32,000 bases of DNA from NCBI RefSeq assembly GCF_018336915.1, contig NZ_CP064925.1:120001-152000 (forward strand), in the 5' to 3' direction. The DNA comes from Acaryochloris marina S15 (GTDB lineage Bacteria; Cyanobacteriota; Cyanobacteriia; Thermosynechococcales; Thermosynechococcaceae). Shown piece by piece: positions 14,394 to 26,945 of the stretch. Both the position numbers and the translations under genes were made by a program. Below the pieces are notes generated by a model. That model searched no databases and was not told the origin of the DNA. It saw nothing but the letters and a program-made list of their open reading frames with translations. Position 1 is the stretch's first letter; each line of letters opens with the position of its first letter.

Positions 14394-14678
14394 TCATGAC
14401 ACCTCTTCATAACCAGTCACCACAATATCAGTCTTAGCCCAACGAAAAACCAATGTTCCGTTCATGGCTTTGACTATGCATTCAATGGTTTTATGGCTTG
14501 ATTTATCAGGATCTTCGAGAGCCCTTTCCAGTGTTGATATAAGTGTTCTGGGGTTAGGGAAACTCTCGTTGTAAAGCTCCTCTCTAACCCTGGCAACTTC
14601 TTGAGCTAGGCGATAACTTGACCAACCTAGTTCCTGCAATCGGCTAGTTAGTATCTCTGGACGCATTGTAAATGTCAC
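14394..14678 (-). CDS. small HTH-like regulator (putative)
   Basis: GTG start with GGAGGT 9 nt upstream. SRLQELGWSSYRLAQEVARV resembles a Cro/CI-type helix-turn-helix. It is divergent from the P1 promoter region. Confidence 0.5.
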   Translation of the reverse strand: MTFTMRPEILTSRLQELGWSSYRLAQEVARVREELYNESFPNPRTLISTLERALEDPDKSSHKTIECIVKAMNGTLVFRWAKTDIVVTGYEEVS

Positions 14679-14783
14679 TGCTTATCACCTCCATTGTGCC
14701 TTTTCCTAGAACTATTGGATTTTTTATAAGTATATAAGGGAGTTCAGGTAATCTCAAAAGAAACATTAAGTTACTTTATAAGG

Positions 14784-14812
14784 GTTGTAAAAGTAACTTT
14801 ATACAGTTACTA
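14784..14812 (+). promoter_or_regulatory. putative sigma-70 promoter P1 (TTGTAA-17-TACTAT) within an operator-like inverted repeat
   Basis: AAGGGTTGTA, a 17-nt spacer and TAYTAT are shared with P2. The inverted repeat AAGTTACTTT/AAAGTAACTT flanks the -35 element. Confidence 0.4.
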
Positions 14813-14993
14813 TATTAACAGATAGAAAAGGCAAGCGCCCAACGGAAGGCTTCCCCACAACCAAATAAGTGAGTTCTACGAAGTGCTAGGTTACCCTGCT
14901 GAATACCGCAGTCACGAAACCGAGGTAACGCTGGATCAAGGTCTGAATGCCCTCGGTGGATAAATTAAAAGTTCAAAAACTAGTCCAAAGACA

Positions 14994-15041
14994 AAGCGGA
15001 AGAGATTCGATTGACACCCGTTCCTCTTCCGCTGGCTTTTA
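14994..15041 (+). promoter_or_regulatory. leader stem-loop / attenuator-like hairpin before the DUF932 gene
   Basis: 10-bp stem AGCGGAAGAG/CTCTTCCGCT with a 20-nt loop, followed by GGCTTTTA. It ends 6-21 nt before the candidate start codons. Confidence 0.45.
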
Positions 15042-15061
15042 CACCTATGGAGATTTTAACC

Positions 15062-16117
15062 ATGAAACAAGGACTTACGCTCGTTGAAATGGCCCAAGCT
15101 GTTCAAGACCAGGCTGAGGCCAAGCGTGATTTTGTTGCTGATACACGCACTCTTGAGATGAACCCTGATGGTTCAATCACAGTTGAGTCAGAAGAAGTCG
15201 AGGAAACTTTCACCACTACTGAACACACCCACGGCCAGATTTCCCAACGCCTCAGCATTCCCCTCAAATACTATCGCCGTATGCAATCTACAGCCCCCCA
15301 ACTTCTAGCTGAGAACGTCAATCATTGGTTCAACACTAACCATGAGCGGCGCATGATTCGCACCCTTGACGGTTCTGCTCGTGCTTTCCTCTCAGACCGC
15401 TATCGCAGAGTGGACAACTTTGAGATTGCTGAAACGGTCTTGCCCGTCCTGAATGAGTTTGGTGACGGCTTGAAAATCGTTAGCGTTGGCCTGACTGACT
15501 CAAGACTGTATATCAAGGCAATCAATGAAAGAGTTCAGCTTGACGTGAAAAAAGGTGACGCTGTTCAAGCTGGGGTGGTCATCAGTAATTCTGAGATTGG
15601 TCTTGGCTCGATACGGGTTGAACCCCTTGTATTTCGGTTAATTTGCCTCAACGGCATGATTTCTCAAGACCACAGCTTTAAGAAATATCATGTGGGTCGC
15701 CAAGTCGGTGAAAGTGATGCCGCGATGGAACTATTCAGCGATGAGACGATGCAAGCAGATGACAGAGCGCTATTGCTCAAAATCCGTGACATGGTGCGAG
15801 GGGCTGCTGATGTTGCCAAGTTCACCCAGATAGTTGATCGGATGCGCGATGCCACAGAACGCAAGATCGAGGGTAACCCGGTCACTGCTGTGGAGGTATT
15901 GGGCGATAAGCTCAACGTCAATCAGGAAGAGAAGTCAGGCATACTAACCCACCTGATCCAGGGTGGCGATTTGACCGCTTACGGAATGATGAACGCTGTC
16001 ACCCGGACTTCCCAAGATGTTGAGAGCTACGACCGGGCAACGGAGCTAGAGACGATGGGTTCTCAGGTTCTGAGCCTACCTCAAGCTACCTGGCGAGAGA
16101 TTGCGGTAGCCCGATAG
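15062..16117 (+). CDS. DUF932-family phage/plasmid-associated protein
   Basis: HTHGQISQRLSIPLKYYRRM...RMIRTLDGSARAFLSDRYRRVDNFEIAETVLPVL... fits the DUF932 pattern. GGAG lies 9 nt before the ATG at 15062; an alternative ATG is at 15047. Confidence 0.8.
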   Translation: MKQGLTLVEMAQAVQDQAEAKRDFVADTRTLEMNPDGSITVESEEVEETFTTTEHTHGQISQRLSIPLKYYRRMQSTAPQLLAENVNHWFNTNHERRMIRTLDGSARAFLSDRYRRVDNFEIAETVLPVLNEFGDGLKIVSVGLTDSRLYIKAINERVQLDVKKGDAVQAGVVISNSEIGLGSIRVEPLVFRLICLNGMISQDHSFKKYHVGRQVGESDAAMELFSDETMQADDRALLLKIRDMVRGAADVAKFTQIVDRMRDATERKIEGNPVTAVEVLGDKLNVNQEEKSGILTHLIQGGDLTAYGMMNAVTRTSQDVESYDRATELETMGSQVLSLPQATWREIAVAR

Positions 16118-16165
16118 TCCATATCTTTCAGCCCTGGTTATTTGCTGGGGCTGAGGAGAGATTGG

Positions 16166-16378
16166 CTATACTTCAGGCTTAATTCTCACGAGCAACTCTG
16201 TAATCCCGCAGTTAAGAGCGTCACAGATTTTTTCAAGAGTATCGAACTGAATACCCTTAGCTTTTCCCTGCTCAATTTTTTGAATATTTTGAGGAGACAT
16301 GCCAGTTGCTCTTGCTAGCTGGTTTTGGGAAAACCCTCTATTCTCTCTGACTTCTTTCAGTTTAAAAATCACAGCCAT
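16166..16378 (-). CDS. XRE/Cro-C1-type HTH transcriptional regulator
   Basis: LKEVRENRGFSQNQLARATGMSPQNIQKIEQGKAKGIQFDTLEKICDALNCGITELL. Confidence 0.9.
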   Translation of the reverse strand: MAVIFKLKEVRENRGFSQNQLARATGMSPQNIQKIEQGKAKGIQFDTLEKICDALNCGITELLVRIKPEV

Positions 16379-16489
16379 TACCAAAAACTACTACTAGTAG
16401 TAACACAACAGATAGAAGTACAGCGAAGAGTGATAAGCCGTACTGATCGATTCTCCCCTGAATATTACTAATAGTCATACAACAAAGGG

Positions 16490-16518
16490 TTGTATAATAC
16501 TGTTAATAGTATTATTAT
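16490..16518 (+). promoter_or_regulatory. putative sigma-70 promoter P2 (TTGTAT-17-TATTAT), homologous to P1
   Basis: Shares AAGGGTTGTA and the spacing with P1. The palindrome ACTACTAGTAGT lies upstream. An alternative reading uses TATAAT at 16493-16498 as the -10. Confidence 0.4.
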
Positions 16519-16670
16519 AAGTAGTATACAAGGAAAGGAAAGCGCCCAACGAAAGGCTTCCACCGAAATAGTCCAGAGACATGATCTTCTAGGCAGAGCA
16601 CAAGGTCTTCCAGACTGGGTAAAGAAGCTAGAAGAAGCAATCAAAGGATAGATACAAAATTTTTATTAAA

Positions 16671-16708
16671 AGAGCCGCTGACTTTCTAGCAGGAGACCCA
16701 GCGGCTCT
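16671..16708 (+). promoter_or_regulatory. leader stem-loop before the orf88/DUF3768 operon
   Basis: 10-bp stem AGAGCCGCTG/CAGCGGCTCT with an 18-nt loop, 30 nt before the ATG at 16738. Its position and geometry match the P1 leader hairpin but the sequence differs. Confidence 0.4.
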
Positions 16709-16737
16709 CCATGTAAACCCTCTACGAGGTTCACGAC

Positions 16738-17004
16738 ATGACTGTAGCACTTCTGACCCCAGAGCAACGATATGCTGCTCTCTATCCATCAACGGTTAAA
16801 TTCGATATCACCATTGACTTCTACCCTGGTGTGGAAGAAGACGGTGAAGAACTTGACCTAAGCATTGAGCTTCCCAGTCAGGCTCATGTGACCAGTCGCC
16901 AACAATGCGAACGCTGGGTAGTAGAAAACTATCCTTCAGGGCGGCTGATCAGTGTCCAGCCTATATTTACGACTCAGCAGTTACTCGCTGAAGACGAATT
17001 CTAA
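16738..17004 (+). CDS. hypothetical acidic protein (88 aa)
   Basis: An ORF with GAGG 9 nt upstream; first gene after leader 2. Confidence 0.5.
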   Translation: MTVALLTPEQRYAALYPSTVKFDITIDFYPGVEEDGEELDLSIELPSQAHVTSRQQCERWVVENYPSGRLISVQPIFTTQQLLAEDEF

Positions 17005-17065
17005 CCCATCCATCTGGGGCACCTCTGCCCCTTCGACCGTTTCAGGAATTTCAGAGGACAATCTT

Positions 17066-17410
17066 ATGACCACTACAGAAGTAACCCAAGCCCCCACCAT
17101 TGCCCAGCTCAATGACCGCTTTCGTCAAGGTGACCATACCCTAGGCCAGGTCTACACCACTCAGCTTGTTAAAGGTCTTTCGTCAGAAGCTCAGCAAGAA
17201 CTCTTTCGACTGGTCCGTGTGTTCGATGATTTCACGGAAGATAATGACCCGTGGCAAGAACACGATTACGGGCGGATCGAGTTCCAGGGTGAGCAATATC
17301 TCTGGAAAATTGATTATTACGACAAAAGCTTAGAATACGGCTCGGATGCCCCTGGTAATCCAAAGGTTACCACCAGGGTTCTGACTCTGATGCACTCCAG
17401 CGAGTACTAG
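17066..17410 (+). CDS. DUF3768-like protein
   Basis: IAQLNDRFRQ...FDDFTEDNDPWQEHDYGRIEFQGEQYLWKIDYYDKSLEYGSDAPGNPKVTTRVLTLMHSSEY fits the DUF3768 pattern. The ATG at 17066 is preceded by AGAGGA. Confidence 0.7.
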   Translation: MTTTEVTQAPTIAQLNDRFRQGDHTLGQVYTTQLVKGLSSEAQQELFRLVRVFDDFTEDNDPWQEHDYGRIEFQGEQYLWKIDYYDKSLEYGSDAPGNPKVTTRVLTLMHSSEY

Positions 17411-17495
17411 TATCCCGTCCCTTCTGCGCCCTGGCTCTTGGCTGGGGTGCCCTTCTTCTCTGATTGATACAATGATATTAACGAAGGAAAACGAT

Positions 17496-17726
17496 ATGAC
17501 AGCAGCATCACCTGACAGAGATGACCGAATAGAAAGCACTCTAGAGACTGTTCTAGAGAAGATTCAGCAGATTGATACCAAAGTAGAAAAGCTGGATACC
17601 GATGTTCGTGCTGCCAATGAACGAACTGATACCTACTGGGAAGCCTCGAAGCTGCTGATTAATCTGGCTTTTGGATTGATTGCAACGGCTGTAATTGCCA
17701 TCATCATTCCTGCAGTGTTAAGGTAA
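17496..17726 (+). CDS. small coiled-coil protein with a C-terminal TM helix
   Basis: GAAGGA lies before the ATG at 17496. The C-terminus is LLINLAFGLIATAVIAIIIPAVL. A terminator follows. Confidence 0.5.
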   Translation: MTAASPDRDDRIESTLETVLEKIQQIDTKVEKLDTDVRAANERTDTYWEASKLLINLAFGLIATAVIAIIIPAVLR

Positions 17727-17756
17727 TTCCCATTCCTTCATTTCATTATCTCCAAA

Positions 17757-17790
17757 GCACCCCGGCATCTACTGTCCGGGGTTTTTCTTC
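17757..17790 (+). terminator. rho-independent terminator
   Basis: ACCCCGG-catctactgt-CCGGGGT followed by TTTTCTTC. Confidence 0.7.
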
Positions 17791-21259: not shown

Positions 21260-21271
21260 GGGGTGAGGATC

Positions 21272-22297
21272 ATGAGCGCCACCCAAATGGTCTTGCCCTT
21301 CCAAGTGCCCGGTGCCTCGACGCTTCCTGATCTGTCCACCTATGATCGCATTCTGGTCGCCTTCTCCGGTGGCAAGGATTCTATCTGCTGTCTGTTGCGA
21401 CTACTGGAGTTGGGTATCCCCAAAGACAGGATTGAATTGCATCATCATTTGGTTGATTCAAGGGGCCACAACCTTTTCGACTGGCCTGTCACCGAGAGCT
21501 ATTGCCGCAAATTTGCCCAAGCCTTCGACCTTCCTCTGTATATGAGCTGGCTAGAAGGTGGGCTAGAACGCGAGATGTGTCGCAAGGACCAACCCAAAGC
21601 ACCCACACACTTCCAGACTCCTAATGGTGAGCAAATATCTGGGGGGCAAGGCAAGCCTGGAACTCGGCGCAAGTTCCCAGCAAAGACCGCTGACCTCAAA
21701 ACTCGGTGGTGTTCTTCCTATCTGAAGATTGATGTTCTCAGCACCGCCATTGCCAATCAATCTCGGTTCAACCATGCTCGAACTCTGGTGGTAACCGGAG
21801 AGCGGGCACAGGAGAGTGCCGCTAGAGCAAAGTATCTCACCTTGGAGCCACACCGAACTGATCGGCGGGATAGCCTCAAACTCAGGCGACATATTGACCA
21901 CTGGCGACCCGTCCACTCATATACGAGTGAGCAAGTCTGGGAGATGATTCAGCGCTGGGGAGTCCTGGCACATCCTGCCTACTACCTCGGCTGGGGTCGG
22001 CTGAGCTGTCAGTTCTGCATTTTCGGCTCACCTAATCAGTGGGCTTCTAATGCGGCCATCTCGCCAGAGCGCACAAAGCGGTTGCACCAGTACGAGCAAG
22101 AGTTTCAACACACCATCGACAACAAGCTTTCCATCCCAGACATGGCCGATAAGGGAACGGCTTACGCTGCCATCCACCAGCATCCTGATCAGCTTCGACT
22201 TGCCCTGAGCAATGAATACACAGCCCCAATCCTCGTTGACCCGAATACCTGGACCCTGCCTGCTGGGGCATTTGGGGAGAGCGCAGGACCGACTTAA
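21272..22297 (+). CDS. PAPS-reductase-family PP-loop ATP pyrophosphatase (DndC/IbrA-like class)
   Basis: PP-loop ILVAFSGGKDS. The C-terminal core is WRPVHSYTSEQVWEMIQRWGV..HPAYYLGWGRLSCQFCIF. The RBS is GGGGTGAGGA. Confidence 0.85.
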   Translation: MSATQMVLPFQVPGASTLPDLSTYDRILVAFSGGKDSICCLLRLLELGIPKDRIELHHHLVDSRGHNLFDWPVTESYCRKFAQAFDLPLYMSWLEGGLEREMCRKDQPKAPTHFQTPNGEQISGGQGKPGTRRKFPAKTADLKTRWCSSYLKIDVLSTAIANQSRFNHARTLVVTGERAQESAARAKYLTLEPHRTDRRDSLKLRRHIDHWRPVHSYTSEQVWEMIQRWGVLAHPAYYLGWGRLSCQFCIFGSPNQWASNAAISPERTKRLHQYEQEFQHTIDNKLSIPDMADKGTAYAAIHQHPDQLRLALSNEYTAPILVDPNTWTLPAGAFGESAGPT

Positions 22298-22308
22298 GGA
22301 GATTAGAC

Positions 22309-23760
22309 ATGAAGAAAAAATCTTACATCACAGTCACCGACCAATTTGCTGGGTGTGGTGGTTCGAGCAGTGGTGCTGCTCAAGCGGGCTGTGAAATCGT
22401 GATGGCAATCAACCACTGGGAAAGGGCCGTTGAAACCCACAATACCAACTTTCCCAATACCGCCCATGATTGCCTGGACATCAGCGCTTGCGACCCTTGT
22501 CGCTATCCCAGTACGGATATTTTGCTGAGTTCGCCCGAGTGTACAAACCATACGATTGCGAAAGGAAAAAGACGCAAAAACCTGGGCCAGATGGACTTAT
22601 TTAATCCCCAAACCATCGACCCGGCTGATGAAAGATCAAGGGCTATTTTATGGGATGTCGTCAGATTTTCAGAGGCCCATCGGTACAACTTCATCATCGT
22701 GGAGAACGTTGTTGAGGTGCGTCACTGGATCCTGTTCGATAGCTGGCTTAATGCCATGCACACCTTGGGATATGACCATAAGGCGGTATTCTTCAACAGC
22801 ATGTTTGCCGAAGCACCTCAAAGCAGGGACCGTGTTTACATTGTCTTCTGGAGGAAAAACAACCCTAAACCCAACCTCAGCTTTACCCCCCTGGCCCATT
22901 GCTCCGAATGTGGCGAGGTCGAGGCCATCCAGTCTTGGAAAAACCCATTCAAAAAATGGGGGCGTTACGGCAAGCGCAATCAGTATGTTTATCGCTGTCC
23001 CAGTTGCGCTCAGATCGTGGAGCCTTACTATACCCCAGCCTATACCGCGATTGACTGGAGCTATCCCAGTATCAAGGTGGGTGAGCGCAAAAGACCACTG
23101 AGGCCAGCAACTCTAGACCGCATTCGTAAGGGATTGGAGAAGTTCAACAATCCTGTCCTGGTAGAAACGGCTTACGGCAAAGACACGAGCAATCGGGTTC
23201 GGAGTGTGGAGGGGATTCTTCCCACCCAGACTGCCCGCCAAACAATGGCCTTGGCAATGCCGTTCATTGTCAGGAATTACACGGGGGCGCAGGCCGCTAG
23301 CATTAGTGAGCCACTGCCCACAGTCACCACGGTTGACCATAATTCGCTGGTGCAGCCGTTTATGGTGACACTCCGAAACCACAACCAAGCACACTCACTG
23401 GAGGAGCCGCTAGGTACGGTCACCGCTGGGGGAGGGCATCACGGTTTAGTTCAGCCTTTTCTAGCTAGCTATTACAGTGGCTCAGATCAAGTCTGTGGAG
23501 TGGATAAAGCCATTCCCACCATCACTGCCGGCGACCGCCATGCCCTGGTGCAACCGGATCGCTCTATCTCTGTTGAAGACTGCTATTTTCGCATGTTGCA
23601 ACCTCATGAAATCCAGGCAGCGATGGCCTTTTCTCAAGATTACGTCGTGATTGGCAATAAGCGAGAGAAGGTTAAACAGCTTGGCAACGCCGTTACTCCA
23701 CCCGTAATGCAGATGATTGTGCAACGTTGCCTTGATTCCCTGTCATCCTCAAATTTTTGA
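22309..23760 (+). CDS. DNA (cytosine-5)-methyltransferase
   Basis: Motif I DQFAGCGG, motif IV SSPECTNHT (a variant PC motif), motif VI IVENV, motif VIII QSRDRVYIVF, motif IX RMLQPHEIQAAMAF, motif X QLGNAVTPPV. The RBS is AAGGAG. Confidence 0.95.
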   Translation: MKKKSYITVTDQFAGCGGSSSGAAQAGCEIVMAINHWERAVETHNTNFPNTAHDCLDISACDPCRYPSTDILLSSPECTNHTIAKGKRRKNLGQMDLFNPQTIDPADERSRAILWDVVRFSEAHRYNFIIVENVVEVRHWILFDSWLNAMHTLGYDHKAVFFNSMFAEAPQSRDRVYIVFWRKNNPKPNLSFTPLAHCSECGEVEAIQSWKNPFKKWGRYGKRNQYVYRCPSCAQIVEPYYTPAYTAIDWSYPSIKVGERKRPLRPATLDRIRKGLEKFNNPVLVETAYGKDTSNRVRSVEGILPTQTARQTMALAMPFIVRNYTGAQAASISEPLPTVTTVDHNSLVQPFMVTLRNHNQAHSLEEPLGTVTAGGGHHGLVQPFLASYYSGSDQVCGVDKAIPTITAGDRHALVQPDRSISVEDCYFRMLQPHEIQAAMAFSQDYVVIGNKREKVKQLGNAVTPPVMQMIVQRCLDSLSSSNF

Positions 23761-23813: not shown

Positions 23814-23915
23814 ATGAATAGCTACACTCTTGTCTGGTGGCTCATCTGGCAATCCCTCTACTTCGGCATGTTTCTTTATTTCTTCCTCTATGATGCCTTG
23901 AGGAGCTACCCATGA
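23814..23915 (+). CDS. 33-aa hydrophobic micro-ORF
   Basis: TAGGAGG lies 5 nt before the ATG. Translation is MNSYTLVWWLIWQSLYFGMFLYFFLYDALRSYP. Its TGA overlaps the ATG of the next gene (ATGA at 23912). Confidence 0.45.
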   Translation: MNSYTLVWWLIWQSLYFGMFLYFFLYDALRSYP

Positions 23916-25039
23916 TTCACGTACTCAACTTTGGCATGGGCGTAGATTCCGTCGCAATTTTGCTTTCCTGGATTTACAGCCCCAAAACCCGCCCTTTTGC
24001 TAGTTTTGATGATTTGATATTGATAACTGCCCAAACGGGTAACGAACATCAATCCACTAAGCACTTGGTCGAAGCACACATCTTGCCCTTGCTCAGGCAA
24101 CATCAGATTCGCTTTGTCCAGGTCGCCAAGGCGGGTCACTCTAAAAAAGATGGATACACCGTCTTGAGTGATACTCGAAACCCCCAGATCTGCCATATCG
24201 AAGGCGATTACACTCTCGGTCATTCTCTCAAAATTGCAGGCACAAGCCAACCTGTGAGTGGTGCCCATACCTGTGCCATGAAGTTTAAAGGTGTCGTCAT
24301 TGATAGCTGGATATCGGATCATCTCTCTGGTGAGGCCATCGGTCCATATCTGGGTTATTGCAAAGGGGAAGAAAAGCGCTCAGCCAAGTGTGCTGATTAC
24401 CCCTGCATGGGGTCTGATTATCGATTTCCGCTCCAAGAATGGGGCTGGGATAGACAGACCTGCATTGACTACATCCGTGAAAAGACCGGGGCAGATTGGC
24501 TCAAGTCGGCCTGTGTTTTCTGTCCCTTCTGTAAGCCCGAACAGGCGAGACAGCGCTGGGAAGCTGAACCGGATGCGGGCCTGTACGCCTTGGTTTTGGA
24601 AGCTGCGGCGCTTGCCCTCAACCCCAGAATGAAGCTTTTTGCCAGTCGTTCTGCCTGGGAGGTTGCTCCCCAATCTGTCAGGGAGCTGGCAGTGAATCAC
24701 CTAGACTCAATTGACTGGGCGGTTTACCGGGTCGAGCGCATTTATCAAGGTAAGCAAATCAGTAGGCGAGTCACGCGAGTGTCTGAGCCGATGCATCGCA
24801 GTGCTGCTGATGCTCAAGTCAGTGTGATTGCCAAGCAACACGGCTGTGCTTGCGATGCATCAGACCCGACCTACGTCAGAGCTTATGAGTATCACAAAAA
24901 ATCTAATGAGTCCCTGACCTGTGAAGGGTTCTGGGTTGCTGCACCTGGATTTATTCAAGATAAGGTGCATCGACCGAATTACTTTGAGCAGACCTGGCAA
25001 GAGGCGACCGGGAAGGTCAAGCAGCTCTCACTAGTTTGA
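23912..25039 (+). CDS. divergent PP-loop-like (PAPS-reductase-like, phage-type) protein
   Basis: N-terminal VLNFGMGVDSVAILL lies at the position of the SGGxDS P-loop. A mid-protein Cys cluster is ACVFCPFC. The assignment is by motif only. Confidence 0.55.
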   Translation: MIHVLNFGMGVDSVAILLSWIYSPKTRPFASFDDLILITAQTGNEHQSTKHLVEAHILPLLRQHQIRFVQVAKAGHSKKDGYTVLSDTRNPQICHIEGDYTLGHSLKIAGTSQPVSGAHTCAMKFKGVVIDSWISDHLSGEAIGPYLGYCKGEEKRSAKCADYPCMGSDYRFPLQEWGWDRQTCIDYIREKTGADWLKSACVFCPFCKPEQARQRWEAEPDAGLYALVLEAAALALNPRMKLFASRSAWEVAPQSVRELAVNHLDSIDWAVYRVERIYQGKQISRRVTRVSEPMHRSAADAQVSVIAKQHGCACDASDPTYVRAYEYHKKSNESLTCEGFWVAAPGFIQDKVHRPNYFEQTWQEATGKVKQLSLV

Positions 25040-25082: not shown

Positions 25083-25700
25083 ATGTATGCCCCCACTGAC
25101 AAGCGTGGTCAGCAGAAGCTTGCTATTACGCTCAACCTTGTTCCGAATACCCCAGCCCTTCCTGTGGGTACCTATTCCCTGATCGTGGCTGATCCACCGT
25201 GGAGCTATCACCTCAGAGAATCTGACAAAACCCATCGGGGGCGGTGCCCTTATCCCTCGATGACCGATGAGGAAATCATGGCGATGCCTGTGAGTTCGAT
25301 TGCGGCTCAAGATTCTTATCTGTTGTTGTGGACGACAAACAACCACCTACCTTTGGCCTTCAAAGTCATGGAGTTATGGGGGTTTGAGTACAAGGCACTT
25401 CATACGTGGGTCAAAGTCACACGAGACAGGTCCAAGATCCGATACGGTATCGGACACTATGGGCGAAATTGCACCGAACAAATTTTGGTAGGCCGCAAAG
25501 GTAAGGCCAAAACCTTTACTGCTCTCGGACTGACCAATATTCCCACTGCATTCCAGGCTCCCCTTGGTCAGCACTCTCAGAAGCCAGAAGAGTTTTACCA
25601 GATGGCAGATCGGCTAGGTGATGCCCTCGGTGGTCAGCGGATTGAGTTGTTCTCTCGGTGCCCTCGTCCAGGCTGGGAGAACTGGGGAGCGGAGGCATAG
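25083..25700 (+). CDS. MT-A70-family DNA N6-adenine methyltransferase
   Basis: YSLIVADPPWSY (DPPW catalytic motif), LLLWTTN, and HSQKPEEFY. Confidence 0.9.
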   Translation: MYAPTDKRGQQKLAITLNLVPNTPALPVGTYSLIVADPPWSYHLRESDKTHRGRCPYPSMTDEEIMAMPVSSIAAQDSYLLLWTTNNHLPLAFKVMELWGFEYKALHTWVKVTRDRSKIRYGIGHYGRNCTEQILVGRKGKAKTFTALGLTNIPTAFQAPLGQHSQKPEEFYQMADRLGDALGGQRIELFSRCPRPGWENWGAEA

Positions 25701-25702
25701 CC

Positions 25703-26152
25703 ATGAAAATCCTCACCCTCTGGCAACCGTGGGCAACCTTCATTGCCCTGGACCTCAAGCGCTATGAAACCCGATCATGGGGCACTCGCTACCGAGGCAA
25801 GCTAGCGATTCATGCGGCCAAGCGACCTATCGGTTTAGACGGGCAAGCCATAGTGAGCCAAGTTAATGATCTGACGGGTGGCAAGGTGCCGCGCAAACCA
25901 TGTGATTACCCACTCGGTTGCATTGTGGCAATTGCGGATCTGGTGGACTGTCCCCAGATGGACTCGAAGCTGATCAGCAGACAAACCGAACTGGAGCTGG
26001 CCGTGGGGTGCTGGCAACCTGGGCGCTTTGCATGGCAGTTAGGAAACATCGTTGTACTGCCTGATCCTATTCCCTATCGCGGGAGCCAGGGACTCCGGGA
26101 TGTCCGACCTGATGTACTGAAAATTTTGATGGAGTTAACCAATGGAGAATAG
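25703..26152 (+). CDS. ASCH-domain protein
   Basis: MKILTLWQPWATFIALDLKRYETRSWGTRYRGKLAIHAA fits the ASCH pattern. GGAGG lies upstream, and the gene starts 2 nt after the preceding stop. Confidence 0.8.
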   Translation: MKILTLWQPWATFIALDLKRYETRSWGTRYRGKLAIHAAKRPIGLDGQAIVSQVNDLTGGKVPRKPCDYPLGCIVAIADLVDCPQMDSKLISRQTELELAVGCWQPGRFAWQLGNIVVLPDPIPYRGSQGLRDVRPDVLKILMELTNGE

Positions 26153-26945
26153 CAAGATTGAGTGGACTGCAACTCAAAAACCAGATGGGACATGGGAACC
26201 TGGATACACTTTCAACCCTTGGATCGGCTGCGCCCACATCAGTCCTGGCTGTGCAAATTGCTACGCCGAAACCCTGATGGATAAAAGATATCATCGCGTG
26301 AAGTGGGGTAAGAACGGAACCAGATCGCGCACCTCAGAAACCTATTGGAAGCAACCCCATAAGTGGAATCGCAAAGCTGCGAAGTTCGGGGTCACTAAAA
26401 CTGTGTTCTGCGCGTCTTTAGCCGATGTGTTTGAGGACCGAGATGATCTGATCGATTGGCGATTGGATCTGTTTGATACTGTCATCGACAAAACGCCCAA
26501 CCTAACCTGGCTTCTACTCACCAAGCGGGTAGATGTTGCGGCTAAGTTTTTCCAATTCAGACAAGCAATACCCAACGTCTGGTTGGGCCATAGCATCTGC
26601 ACCCAGCATGAATATGATGTCGTCATTCCCAAGCTAGCAAAGTTGCGGAAGAAAGTTGGTGGGATTTTTCTAAGTTGCGAACCCCTGCTTGAACCCTTGG
26701 ATCTTGGTGATTCTCCCGCGAATTGGATTATTGCCGGGGGTGAATCTGGCCCTGGCGCACGGCCTTGCGATGTGGACTGGATTCGCTCAATTCGGGACCA
26801 ATGCAAGACCGCAGATATACCCGTGTTTATCAAGCAGCTCGGCAGCAAACCCGTGGGTGTTCCCAAACTCCGTTCTGCGAAGGGTGGAGACATTCACGAG
26901 TGGCCTGATGATTTGCGAGTGAGGGAATTTCCAGAGTTTGGATGA
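26142..26945 (+). CDS. DUF5131 (phage Gp37/Gp68 family) protein
   Basis: IEWT...FNPWIGCAHISPGCANCYAE, then LLLTKR, SCEPLL, IIAGGESGPGARP and FIKQLG. It overlaps the ASCH gene by 11 nt. Confidence 0.9.
   Translation: MENSKIEWTATQKPDGTWEPGYTFNPWIGCAHISPGCANCYAETLMDKRYHRVKWGKNGTRSRTSETYWKQPHKWNRKAAKFGVTKTVFCASLADVFEDRDDLIDWRLDLFDTVIDKTPNLTWLLLTKRVDVAAKFFQFRQAIPNVWLGHSICTQHEYDVVIPKLAKLRKKVGGIFLSCEPLLEPLDLGDSPANWIIAGGESGPGARPCDVDWIRSIRDQCKTADIPVFIKQLGSKPVGVPKLRSAKGGDIHEWPDDLRVREFPEFG

Follow-up and report, generated by a model that had tools for sequence, protein, structure and literature searches.

Putative repressor-gated promoters with mosaic structured leaders precede DUF932 and DUF3768 genes in a plasmid-like segment of Acaryochloris marina S15

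Two parallel promoter-leader modules

We analyzed a stretch of 32,000 nucleotides (nt) from Acaryochloris marina S15 (contig NZ_CP064925.1, positions 120,001 to 152,000), called here the window, which carries two modules between positions 14394 and 17790, one preceding a DUF932 gene (module 1) and the other an operon with a DUF3768 gene (module 2). Each module comprises a small open reading frame (ORF) on the minus strand, a predicted sigma-70 promoter overlapped by inverted repeats and a leader without conserved ORF. The leaders are conserved mosaics of parts found on several cyanobacterial plasmids, their helices covary, and they end in a hairpin placed at a fixed spacing from the start codon. 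We propose that each module is a repressor-gated establishment promoter joined to a cis-acting structured 5′ untranslated region, the hairpin of which would act on processing, stability or translation of the transcript; in our judgement this reading stands evenly poised. Its promoter logic and the conserved RNA structure are reasonably supported, and the leader modules probably regulate genes that aid the establishment of a plasmid in its new cell.

The initial annotation of the window had described the two modules as parallel. They are true parallels, with all the listed elements in place, and the remark that the stems differ while their position and geometry are kept is borne out, also by the comparison with homologs. 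The shared box of 22–31 nt and the two 10-bp stems annotated just 5′ of the first genes, which are both perfect inverted repeats with loops of 19 and 18 nt, lie far beyond chance. The AAGG-containing box announced downstream of the promoters is confirmed: its core AAGCGCCCAACGRAAGGCTTCC occurs exactly twice (14833–14854 and 16540–16561), with 0 occurrences expected, and the similarity extends to 31 nt at 90% identity. The GGATA(A/G)AT-type motifs are found as GGATAAATTAAAAG at 14958–14971 and as GGATAGAT...ATTAAAAG at 16646–16672. The leaders, estimated earlier at about 190–210 nt and without convincing ORF, measure 248 nt (leader 1) and 219 nt (leader 2) from the −10 hexamer to ATG. No conserved ORF was present in the ORF list of the window or in the homolog alignments; a coding leader was rejected, as both the sole ORF within leader 1 (14947–15087, 46 aa) and an annotated 66-aa coding sequence in the leader of the related plasmid pREB1 lose their frame between homologs.

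Leaders as mosaics of conserved RNA elements

The closest relatives of the segment are the Acaryochloris plasmids pMB01 and pMB03 (strain 'Moss Beach') and pREB1-6 (A. marina), with 85–92% identity. When both intergenic regions of the window were aligned with those of pMB03, pMB01, pREB1, and one Nostoc plasmid, the promoter and operator DNA appeared unrelated between plasmids, and conservation began at the transcribed part. The conservation anticipated for the leader elements is thus a property of the transcribed leader, not of the promoter or operator. The leader family is present on Acaryochloris, Thermosynechococcaceae, and Nostoc plasmids; a search of plasmids with the Thermosynechococcaceae leader gave no match. 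In its members, the regulator and operator vary, and a sigma-70 promoter close to consensus is followed by a 5′ hairpin that may be lacking, a middle module of one of three types (alpha, beta, or gamma), and an A/U-rich linker with a 3′ hairpin of one of two types behind it. All combinations of these parts occur, and the leaders are mosaics of exchangeable modules, with a wider scope than initially seen. The window carries the combinations box, alpha, and type 1 and box, gamma, and type 2; these two leader copies, with no additional copy of any module in the window, compare with one or two per Acaryochloris plasmid and with eight such leaders in all on pREB1-6 of A. marina MBIC11017. The leader modules match no described RNA family: at the gathering thresholds of Rfam 15, no match was obtained in the window or in 20 related loci, and permissive thresholds gave only chance-level matches in the region 14679–17100.

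The middle modules precede various genes and keep conserved unpaired nucleotides in their internal loops. Module alpha is also found on pREB2 and pMB05, preceding other genes, and aligns with beta as a structural variant. Module gamma is 79% identical to its copies on Nostoc plasmids, which precede unrelated small ORFs, and a search with its covariance model (R2) revealed a third, divergent copy on pNe_5 of N. edaphicum, at 30 bits. Before this third lineage was added, 99.2% of the cells in the gamma helices were paired, with 4 compensatory pairs; with it, pairing stands at 98% and 9 of the 17 pairs show compensatory changes, compared with at most 2 in slid controls, in a three-lineage alignment that was fitted to the model and is biased towards structure. 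The consensus fold of gamma is strand-specific (−17.95 kcal/mol on the plus strand versus −7.29 on the minus strand) and includes several invariant G–U pairs. Gamma combines good covariation support with the lack of an Rfam counterpart. The alpha and beta modules show 7 compensatory pairs, a number reached by 10 of 500 shuffles. The Thermosynechococcaceae-type DUF932 leaders also show 7, reached by 3 of 500; their fold has a closing helix and three hairpins in addition to the 3′ hairpin. The covariation of the helices speaks for a conserved RNA structure.

A seven-codon mini-ORF, ATG CCC ACC AAG GCT AAA AAC TAG (MPTKAKN*), was noticed in beta and alpha modules (locus L085 about 1435–1458, L086, L088, L089, L002, and window position 14947). 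Its variation looks synonymous, and a Shine-Dalgarno (SD)-like GGAG or AAGG lies 5–7 nt upstream in some copies; in locus L184, the stop codon is lost and the frame continues into a 60-aa basic ORF. A coding role was discarded, since the same positions are explained equally well or better by a GCC...GGC stem, for which L184 has the compensatory variant GAC...GUC. A further conserved leader module, ...GAGGCACUGG...AGAGAAGGYGA.GGGUA...GGGAAA.GGAU...AAUAAA, is common to several Nostoc plasmids and apparently also to a metagenome-assembled genome (MAG) of Thermosynechococcaceae (L189 1290–1360, L191 1320–1400, L192 1290–1370, L193 1290–1370, and L009 3130–3200).

The 5′ module

The initial annotation took GGAAGGCTTCC, within the shared box, for a palindromic protein-binding box. 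An RNA hairpin fits better: the sequence varies where a bulge and a loop are predicted, and in other leaders the place of GGAAGGCTTCC is taken by unrelated hairpins. The 5′ module is optional: it is present in 10 Acaryochloris leaders, replaced by unrelated hairpins in pMB01 and pMB05, and absent from the otherwise intact leaders of pREB2, pREB6, and pREC1. The Nostoc plasmids have leaders of 400–450 nt behind strong promoters, with transcripts predicted to begin with AAGGGCAAGGAAAGCGAAC... and a covarying 5′ hairpin, GCRAAC...GUUYGC. The 5′ region of the Thermosynechococcaceae leaders (AAGCGAACGCCACCCGGAC) is visibly homologous to this Nostoc 5′ module, of which the window box looks like a form shortened internally. 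Model R1, a covariance model built on that Nostoc module (AAGGGCAAGGAAAGCGAAC... and its hairpin), gave a weak match to window box 2 (11.3 bits, E 0.54) and did not report box 1. Other Acaryochloris boxes also matched weakly (E 0.02–1, the lowest for pREB1 at E 0.02), in each case with the expected position and strand, while operon starts in DUF932 loci of Chlorogloea, Aliterella, and mat metagenomes matched with E-values of 1e-5 to 1e-2. From these matches, it is plausible that the window boxes belong to the Nostoc-type 5′ module.

The Nostoc-type module also marks other operon starts in cyanobacterial DUF932 loci (L184 4227–4273; L011 3012–3064; L017 3017–3073; L099 609–664; others). One such start precedes a DndB-family gene, and in Chlorogloea another lies about 1 kb upstream of DUF932.

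The 3′ hairpins and their distance to the start codon

The 3′ hairpins of the window end about 28–29 nt before the start codon. This distance is about 29–32 nt in all Acaryochloris and Thermosynechococcaceae copies, whatever lies upstream, and it is kept even in L184, where the 60-aa ORF is inserted upstream. Such a fixed distance ties the hairpin to the translation-initiation region and favors a role at the RNA level. Other cyanobacteria have non-homologous hairpins at a similar distance before DUF932, and those of Nostoc lie roughly 28–36 nt before ATG. A small second helix, UGGnn...nnCCA, is located just 5′ of the SD sequence and covaries, as judged by eye.

The type 1 hairpin (GCGGAAGRG...CYCUUCCGC) is conserved in 12 loci, with 5 compensatory pairs and a partly conserved apical loop (UCRAUUGGAMCCYG). 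The gene behind it is DUF932 in every case, also in Thermosynechococcaceae MAGs, in A. thomasi, and in metagenomic contigs. The type 2 hairpin (AGAGCCGCUG...CAGCGGCUCU) precedes DUF3768 operons; the stem does not differ between any of the 11 plasmid copies (a list of 12 loci, two of which are duplicates), the loops differ in both sequence and length (18–21 nt), and the first ORF that follows belongs to one of two unrelated families. Taken together, these properties argue for sequence-specific recognition of the hairpin, and not by the product of the first ORF; an autoregulatory operator for that product was ruled out on the same ground. The variable spacing of the arms further indicates that a folded hairpin, rather than a fixed-phase duplex site for a dimer, would be recognized.

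The initial annotation had suggested that hairpin 1, with its U-tract, could terminate a small RNA of about 210 nt. This is not upheld: the U-tract consists of UUUU only, starts 3 nt past the stem, is absent after hairpin 2, and is not conserved, the homologs carrying CUGGGCUAUUC, CAGGUUCUUAC, and similar sequences after their stems. Neither hairpin of the plus strand was called terminator-like. A conserved intrinsic terminator or attenuator with a U-tract was accordingly rejected for the window and for the Acaryochloris and Thermosynechococcaceae copies, while the Nostoc versions do have U-runs. The consensus folds contained no conserved alternative, mutually exclusive antiterminator pairing, in a search that was not exhaustive. 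An antisense RNA of the FinP type ending at hairpin 2 was also dismissed: FinP was the best permissive Rfam match, with 18.6 bits against a threshold of 45 (E 2.1), the U-run on the minus strand after the hairpin is not conserved (pREB4 has CUCUCGUC), and no conserved antisense promoter is possible, because hairpin 2 precedes two unrelated ORF families. Scanning viral contigs for the hairpin 2 pattern gave palindromic terminators that are unrelated to it.

The loop between the arms is reverse-complemented among copies of type 1 (window 14996–15032 versus L003 2669–2705): the window loop is ATTCGATTGACACCCGTTC, and reverse-complementing the loop of pREB1 and pREB6 gives AGTCGATTGCAACCCGTTT, identical to the window loop at 14 of 19 positions. 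Type 2 loops are likewise inverted (L087 1518–1553 versus L091 1641–1676). Small inversions of hairpin loops are known from chloroplast spacers. At the end of the Nostoc plasmid leaders, before genes without Pfam match, stand hairpins with HIP1 palindromes (GCGATCGC) as stems and a U-run behind them (L190 1540–1600, L191 1560–1620, L192 1565–1625, and L092 1800–1870). Their loop contains a conserved motif, GUCUGGAAAAC, that has UGGA in common with the type 1 loops of Acaryochloris.

Regulators, operators, and promoters

Both minus-strand genes had been labeled as small helix-turn-helix (HTH) genes. Both ORFs exist, and the family matches of the second identify it as a clear XRE/Cro-C1 HTH protein, so that in module 2, a divergent DNA-binding regulator gene lies beside promoter P2. 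The HTH label of ORF 1 was not sustained by any match in Pfam, NCBIfam, or PHROGs, and its single-sequence AlphaFold/AF2 model, with a predicted local distance difference test score of 52, was unusable for structure search. ORF 1 could be an HTH protein by its position, as it sits where homologous loci have diverse HTH or ribbon-helix-helix (RHH) regulators.

The inverted repeats reported for both modules were located at 14765–14802 and 16390–16401. The former consists of two 13-nt arms, ATTAAGTTACTTT (14765–14777) and AAAGTAACTTTAT (14790–14802), that are 92% complementary. For promoter P2, the palindrome ATAATACTGTT/AATAGTATTAT at 16494–16515, found in the repeat search between the −35 and −10 hexamers, appears a better operator candidate than the palindrome at 16390–16401. 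Inverted repeats of operator type thus overlap a predicted sigma-70 promoter in both modules. The shared promoter-region box followed by TAYTAT is indeed present, and exact, in both modules, as AAGGGTTGTA at 14780–14789 and 16485–16494; taken alone, AAGGGTTGTA stays at chance level, with 4 matches at one mismatch or less against 1.85 expected.

In 22 of the 25 leaders collected, a near-consensus TTGACA-17/18-TAnnAT lies about 200–265 nt upstream of ATG. The palindrome in the −35/−10 spacer differs in each homologous leader, from plasmid to plasmid. The upstream regulators are equally diverse, with several XRE subfamilies, pairs of an RHH-like antitoxin and RelE, and a 134-aa protein, and the operator palindromes change along with the regulator, as judged by eye.

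An identical 11-mer, AACAGATAGAA, occurs just after the −10 hexamer of P1 (14817–14827) and again at 16407–16417, close to where the regulator 2 gene starts and about 80 nt upstream of P2. A related motif, ATAGACA, follows the −10 hexamer in most homologous promoters. This motif may resemble the complement of a MOBF nic core, but an origin of transfer (oriT) was set aside as a reading; the motif is present at every promoter and twice within 1.7 kb.

A model of establishment-type expression and its alternatives

In the model that we propose, the modules would be establishment-type expression switches of a conjugative-plasmid-like gene array. The divergent regulator, XRE-type in module 2 and unclassified in module 1, is presumed to be a repressor that binds the inverted repeats overlapping the sigma-70 promoter, so that the promoter would fire when the DNA enters a repressor-free cell and shut off as the repressor accumulates. 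The transcript would open with the 210–250-nt non-coding leader, working in cis as RNA and consisting, in order, of a purine-rich 5′ end with a small hairpin, an exchangeable middle module (alpha before DUF932, gamma before the DUF3768 operon), a single-stranded A/U-rich linker, and the strong 3′ hairpin. The latter, with its sequence-constrained stem about 29 nt upstream of the start codon, would be recognized in its folded, single-stranded form by a protein or RNase and would set mRNA processing, stability, or ribosome access for the first gene. Most likely, it would become a 5′-proximal protective hairpin once the A/U-rich linker is cleaved, with the 5′ and middle modules tuning the fate of the transcript upstream of the cleavage point.

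Several observations weigh against this model. The transcription starts are predicted from sequence only, and P1 and P2 match the consensus at just 8 of 12 positions, which is why the promoter scanner missed them. Thermodynamically, alpha is not unusual (z +0.4), nor is leader 1 overall (z = −0.3), and the 5′ box folds weakly (−6 kcal/mol, z about 0), without covariation among the Acaryochloris copies. As each module is represented by 2–3 independent lineages, the counts of compensatory pairs overstate the number of events. The alpha/beta modules and the 3′ hairpins fold equally well on both strands, and this neutral outcome of the strand test makes a role in single-stranded DNA possible for them. 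The loop inversions point to hairpin dynamics at the DNA level and are hard to reconcile with an essential, strand-specific loop sequence, and the invariant stems could reflect a recent recombination that spread one copy.

Attenuation or processive antitermination would cast the 3′ hairpin as a terminator or pause site and the 5′ module, or a factor loaded there, as the driver of read-through, along the lines of lambda nut/Q, HK022 put, or the conAn system of pLS20. It would account for a conserved promoter-proximal element common to both promoters and for the pre-gene hairpins of the Nostoc plasmids and several other DUF932 loci, which carry a U-run and have the look of canonical terminators. 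A precedent exists in establishment gene regulatory sequence 1 (EGeRS1) of pLS20, which blocks read-through in an orientation-dependent manner (PMC8708921). We nonetheless consider it unlikely, given that the stems lack a proper U-tract in the window and in all Acaryochloris and Thermosynechococcaceae copies, that the 5′ module is missing from three intact leaders, that termination needs no fixed distance to ATG, and that the analysis identified no antiterminator gene. Alternatively, the middle module or the entire leader could be a trans-acting RNA, a decoy or regulator produced in a burst after plasmid entry, with the downstream genes as a by-product. The autonomy and exchangeability of the middle modules, their conservation across genera before unrelated genes, their conserved unpaired nucleotides in internal loops, and a possible release by cleavage in the A/U-rich linker would suit such a function. 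The modules, however, always lie between promoter and ORF in the sense orientation, never alone, they have no defined 3′ end, and no target complementarity was found within the window beyond short chance-level repeats, so that we hold a trans-acting RNA to be quite improbable.

A DNA-level function, in which hairpins of the transferred single strand would serve as priming signals, Frpo/ssi-like promoter elements, or sites for plasmid proteins, seems slightly more doubtful still. Its attraction lies in the unidirectional, leading-region-like array with ssb in pREB1, in hairpin loops that flip between copies while the stem sequences are invariant, in the neutral strand test of the 3′ hairpins, and in a non-coding element repeated before successive genes, like Frpo in F and ColIb (PMC11541004). 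A Frpo-like single-strand promoter was ruled out, as there are several short hairpins, not one long promoter-mimicking hairpin, and no internal −35/−10 hexamer pair in either leader on either strand; moreover, an ordinary duplex promoter with operators lies upstream in every copy, priming would give no reason for a fixed distance of 29–32 nt to the start codon, gamma has invariant G–U pairs and is structured specifically on the coding strand, and the 18–21-nt arm spacing argues against a duplex dimer site. The absence of any dedicated leader function, the leaders being recombination remnants among paralogous plasmid regions with ordinary mRNA hairpins, is in our view very improbable. The mosaicism and the near-identical segments on co-resident Acaryochloris plasmids do point to active recombination or gene conversion, and leader 1 is not unusually stable overall; yet conservation extends to Nostoc and Thermosynechococcaceae with compensatory substitutions, the adjacent promoter and operator DNA has fully diverged while the leaders have not, and the position of the 3′ hairpin is kept across non-homologous stems.

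Beyond the cis-acting leader that we propose, a bolder and rather unlikely possibility is that conjugative plasmids of cyanobacteria carry, in these leaders, a class of modular riboregulators not described before. Their middle modules would act as sensors or platforms that bind a host or plasmid factor, as might gamma with its three covarying helices and conserved purine-rich internal loops, and the invariant 3′ hairpin would serve as output device, gating how establishment and anti-defense genes are translated or processed. Alternatively, released modules would act as trans RNA decoys in the first minutes after transfer.

Comparison with known systems

How conjugative plasmids time the expression of their establishment and anti-defense genes is an active question, and three solutions have been documented so far: single-stranded DNA promoters, repressor circuits, and the unexplained EGeRS1 hairpin regions. 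At the locus described here, cyanobacterial megaplasmids join a repressor-type promoter with conserved, recombining RNA leader modules. This offers short elements for mutagenesis, a way to approach the function of the DUF932 and DUF3768 operons by comparison, and a possible cyanobacterial counterpart of EGeRS1.

EGeRS1 and EGeRS2 were described in the Bacillus pLS20/p576 plasmid family (Val-Calvo et al. 2021, PMC8708921). EGeRS2 consists of a strong promoter and the operators of the plasmid repressor, which results in transient expression after transfer, while EGeRS1 is a promoterless multi-hairpin region of 420–750 bp directly before the ribosome-binding site, with an unexplained mechanism (PMC8708921). 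These sequences would be the closest analogs of our modules, by a likeness in architecture only, and in a different host phylum. In both cases, conserved non-coding sequences are repeated right before the ribosome-binding sites of several small, variable establishment operons and, as for EGeRS1, a region of multiple inverted repeats lies directly upstream of this site in several operons per plasmid. By contrast, one module holds here both the repressor-type promoter and the structured leader. Each module seemingly has its own divergent regulator, from diverse families, where pLS20 has one global RHH repressor, and the leaders are mosaics of 210–450 nt (210–250 nt in the window) with a consensus promoter.

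Single-stranded DNA promoters of the Frpo/ssi type were reportedly treated by Masai and Arai in 1997. Like them, the modules are repeated, orientation-specific, hairpin-forming non-coding elements before successive leading-region genes (ssb, anti-restriction) in a unidirectional array. The Frpo elements that the F and ColIb-P9 leading regions carry are single-stranded DNA promoters (Samuel & Burstein 2024, PMC11541004). Frpo is one long hairpin whose stem recreates the −35 and −10 hexamers, whereas these lie here in the upstream duplex DNA, and the gamma structure is specific to the RNA-sense strand.

In the immediate-early control of lambdoid phages, CI/Cro operators at pL and pR are combined with RNA elements, nut or, in HK022, put, that lie just downstream of the two promoters. 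The two repressor-type promoters of the window, each with the same short promoter-proximal RNA hairpin, would be comparable as a functional analogy only: no N/Q-like protein was found, the window has no canonical terminator to override, and the 5′ element is dispensable in several homologous leaders and has no boxA/boxB similarity. Stabilizers of the 5′ untranslated region are exemplified by the ompA leader hairpin of E. coli and STAB-SD of B. thuringiensis cryIIIA. The purine-rich, AAGG-containing 5′ end followed by a hairpin, and the stable hairpin just 5′ of the ribosome-binding region, recall these elements and could by analogy have a stabilizing role; ompA and STAB-SD are short, not modular, and lack covarying middle domains with conserved internal loops. 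In Aca-controlled anti-CRISPR operons of phages and plasmids, as far as they are covered in the source cited, an HTH repressor limits a strong promoter of early counter-defense genes (PMC8708921). There, aca is usually co-transcribed downstream of acr and, within the same coverage, no structured leader is described, whereas the regulator is divergent here and the leader long and structured.

Genomic setting

Nearly all genes between 15.0 and 28.4 kb of the window are on the plus strand. The order is DUF932, an 88-aa ORF, DUF3768, an ssr2422-family membrane protein, a PNK3P-like phosphatase, two PAPS-reductase-like proteins, C5 and MT-A70 DNA methyltransferases, and DUF5131; an ISL3 transposase and a ParB-like gene lie downstream. 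In pREB1, the same array additionally contains ssb and terminates at parAB. This unidirectional context, with orphan methyltransferases, DUF5131, ssb (in pREB1), and adjoining parAB, has the gene content and one-way layout typical of plasmid leading or establishment regions (PMC11541004). The features of the two modules are listed in Table 1.

Table 1. Coordinates of the features of modules 1 and 2 in the window
Feature	Position	Strand	Details
Regulator-position ORF 1, presumed repressor	14394–14678	-	94 aa from GTG; 90 aa from ATG 14666
Promoter-like site for ORF 1, TTGAGA-17-TATACT	14729–14757	-	10/12 matches
Operator-like repeats AAGTTACTTT / AAAGTAACTT flanking −35, and third half-site CAGTTACTAT over −10	14765–14813		Repeat search, sequence
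Predicted promoter P1, TTGTAA-17-TACTAT	14785–14813	+	Homologs: TTGACA-17-TAATAT at same place
5′ module copy 1, weak hairpin GG-C-AAGC...GCUU-CC	14824–14854	+	Repeat search
Middle module alpha (AAATAAGTGAGTTCTAC...CTGCTGAATACCGCAG...CCGAGG...CCTCGG)	14860–14957	+	Homolog alignment, consensus fold
A/U-rich linker 1 (GGATAAATTAAAAGTTCAAAAACTAGTCC...)	14958–14994	+	GRAUAAA/AAUAAA-type motif recurs in other genera
3′ hairpin type 1: AGCGGAAGAG, 19-nt loop, CUCUUCCGCU	14995–15033	+	Arms 14995–15004 / 15024–15033; perfect 10 bp; z −3.3
SD GGAG and DUF932 gene	15049–16117 (SD 15049–15052, ATG 15062)	+	PF06067 2.8e-9; phrog_1362 7e-57
XRE-family HTH regulator 2, 70 aa	16166–16378	-	Pfam HTH_26 3e-20, HTH_3 1.7e-15
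Palindrome ACTACTAGTAGT adjoining regulator 2 gene start	16390–16401		Sequence
Predicted promoter P2, TTGTAT-17-TATTAT, internal palindrome ATAATACTGTT/AATAGTATTAT	16490–16518	+	
5′ module copy 2	16531–16561	+	Repeat search
Middle module gamma, three-helix RNA motif	16564–16652	+	Model R2, 106 bits
A/U-rich linker 2 (ACAAAATTTTTATTAAA)	16653–16670	+	Sequence
3′ hairpin type 2: AGAGCCGCUG, 18-nt loop, CAGCGGCUCU	16671–16708	+	Arms 16671–16680 / 16699–16708; perfect 10 bp; z −5.7
Operon 2	16726–17790	+	ORF list, Pfam/NCBIfam matches, sequence
Operon 2, SD GAGG	16726–16729	+	
Operon 2, first gene, 88-aa ORF	16738–17004	+	
Operon 2, DUF3768	17066–17410	+	
Operon 2, ssr2422-family membrane protein	17496–17726	+	NCBIfam NF053525, E 1.4e-21
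Operon 2, terminator-like CCCCGG...CCGGGG-TTTTT	17760–17787	+	Sequence

Sequence searches of the PDB with DUF932 and DUF3768 gave no matches, and a scan of the window for tRNA and tmRNA found none. An inverted repeat, CAGCCC...GGGCTG (16129–16153), lies between the convergent ends of the DUF932 and regulator 2 genes, with no U-run after it on either strand. The ssr2422 family is a thylakoid membrane protein family, an unexpected cargo as the third gene of a DUF3768 operon of establishment type. Further downstream, the two PAPS-reductase-like genes (21263–22297 and 23912–25039) bracket an orphan C5 methyltransferase gene (22309–23760) and are followed by the MT-A70 methyltransferase (25083–25700) and DUF5131 (26142–26945) genes, a group that resembles the DNA-modification and anti-restriction cassettes of phages and of plasmid leading regions.

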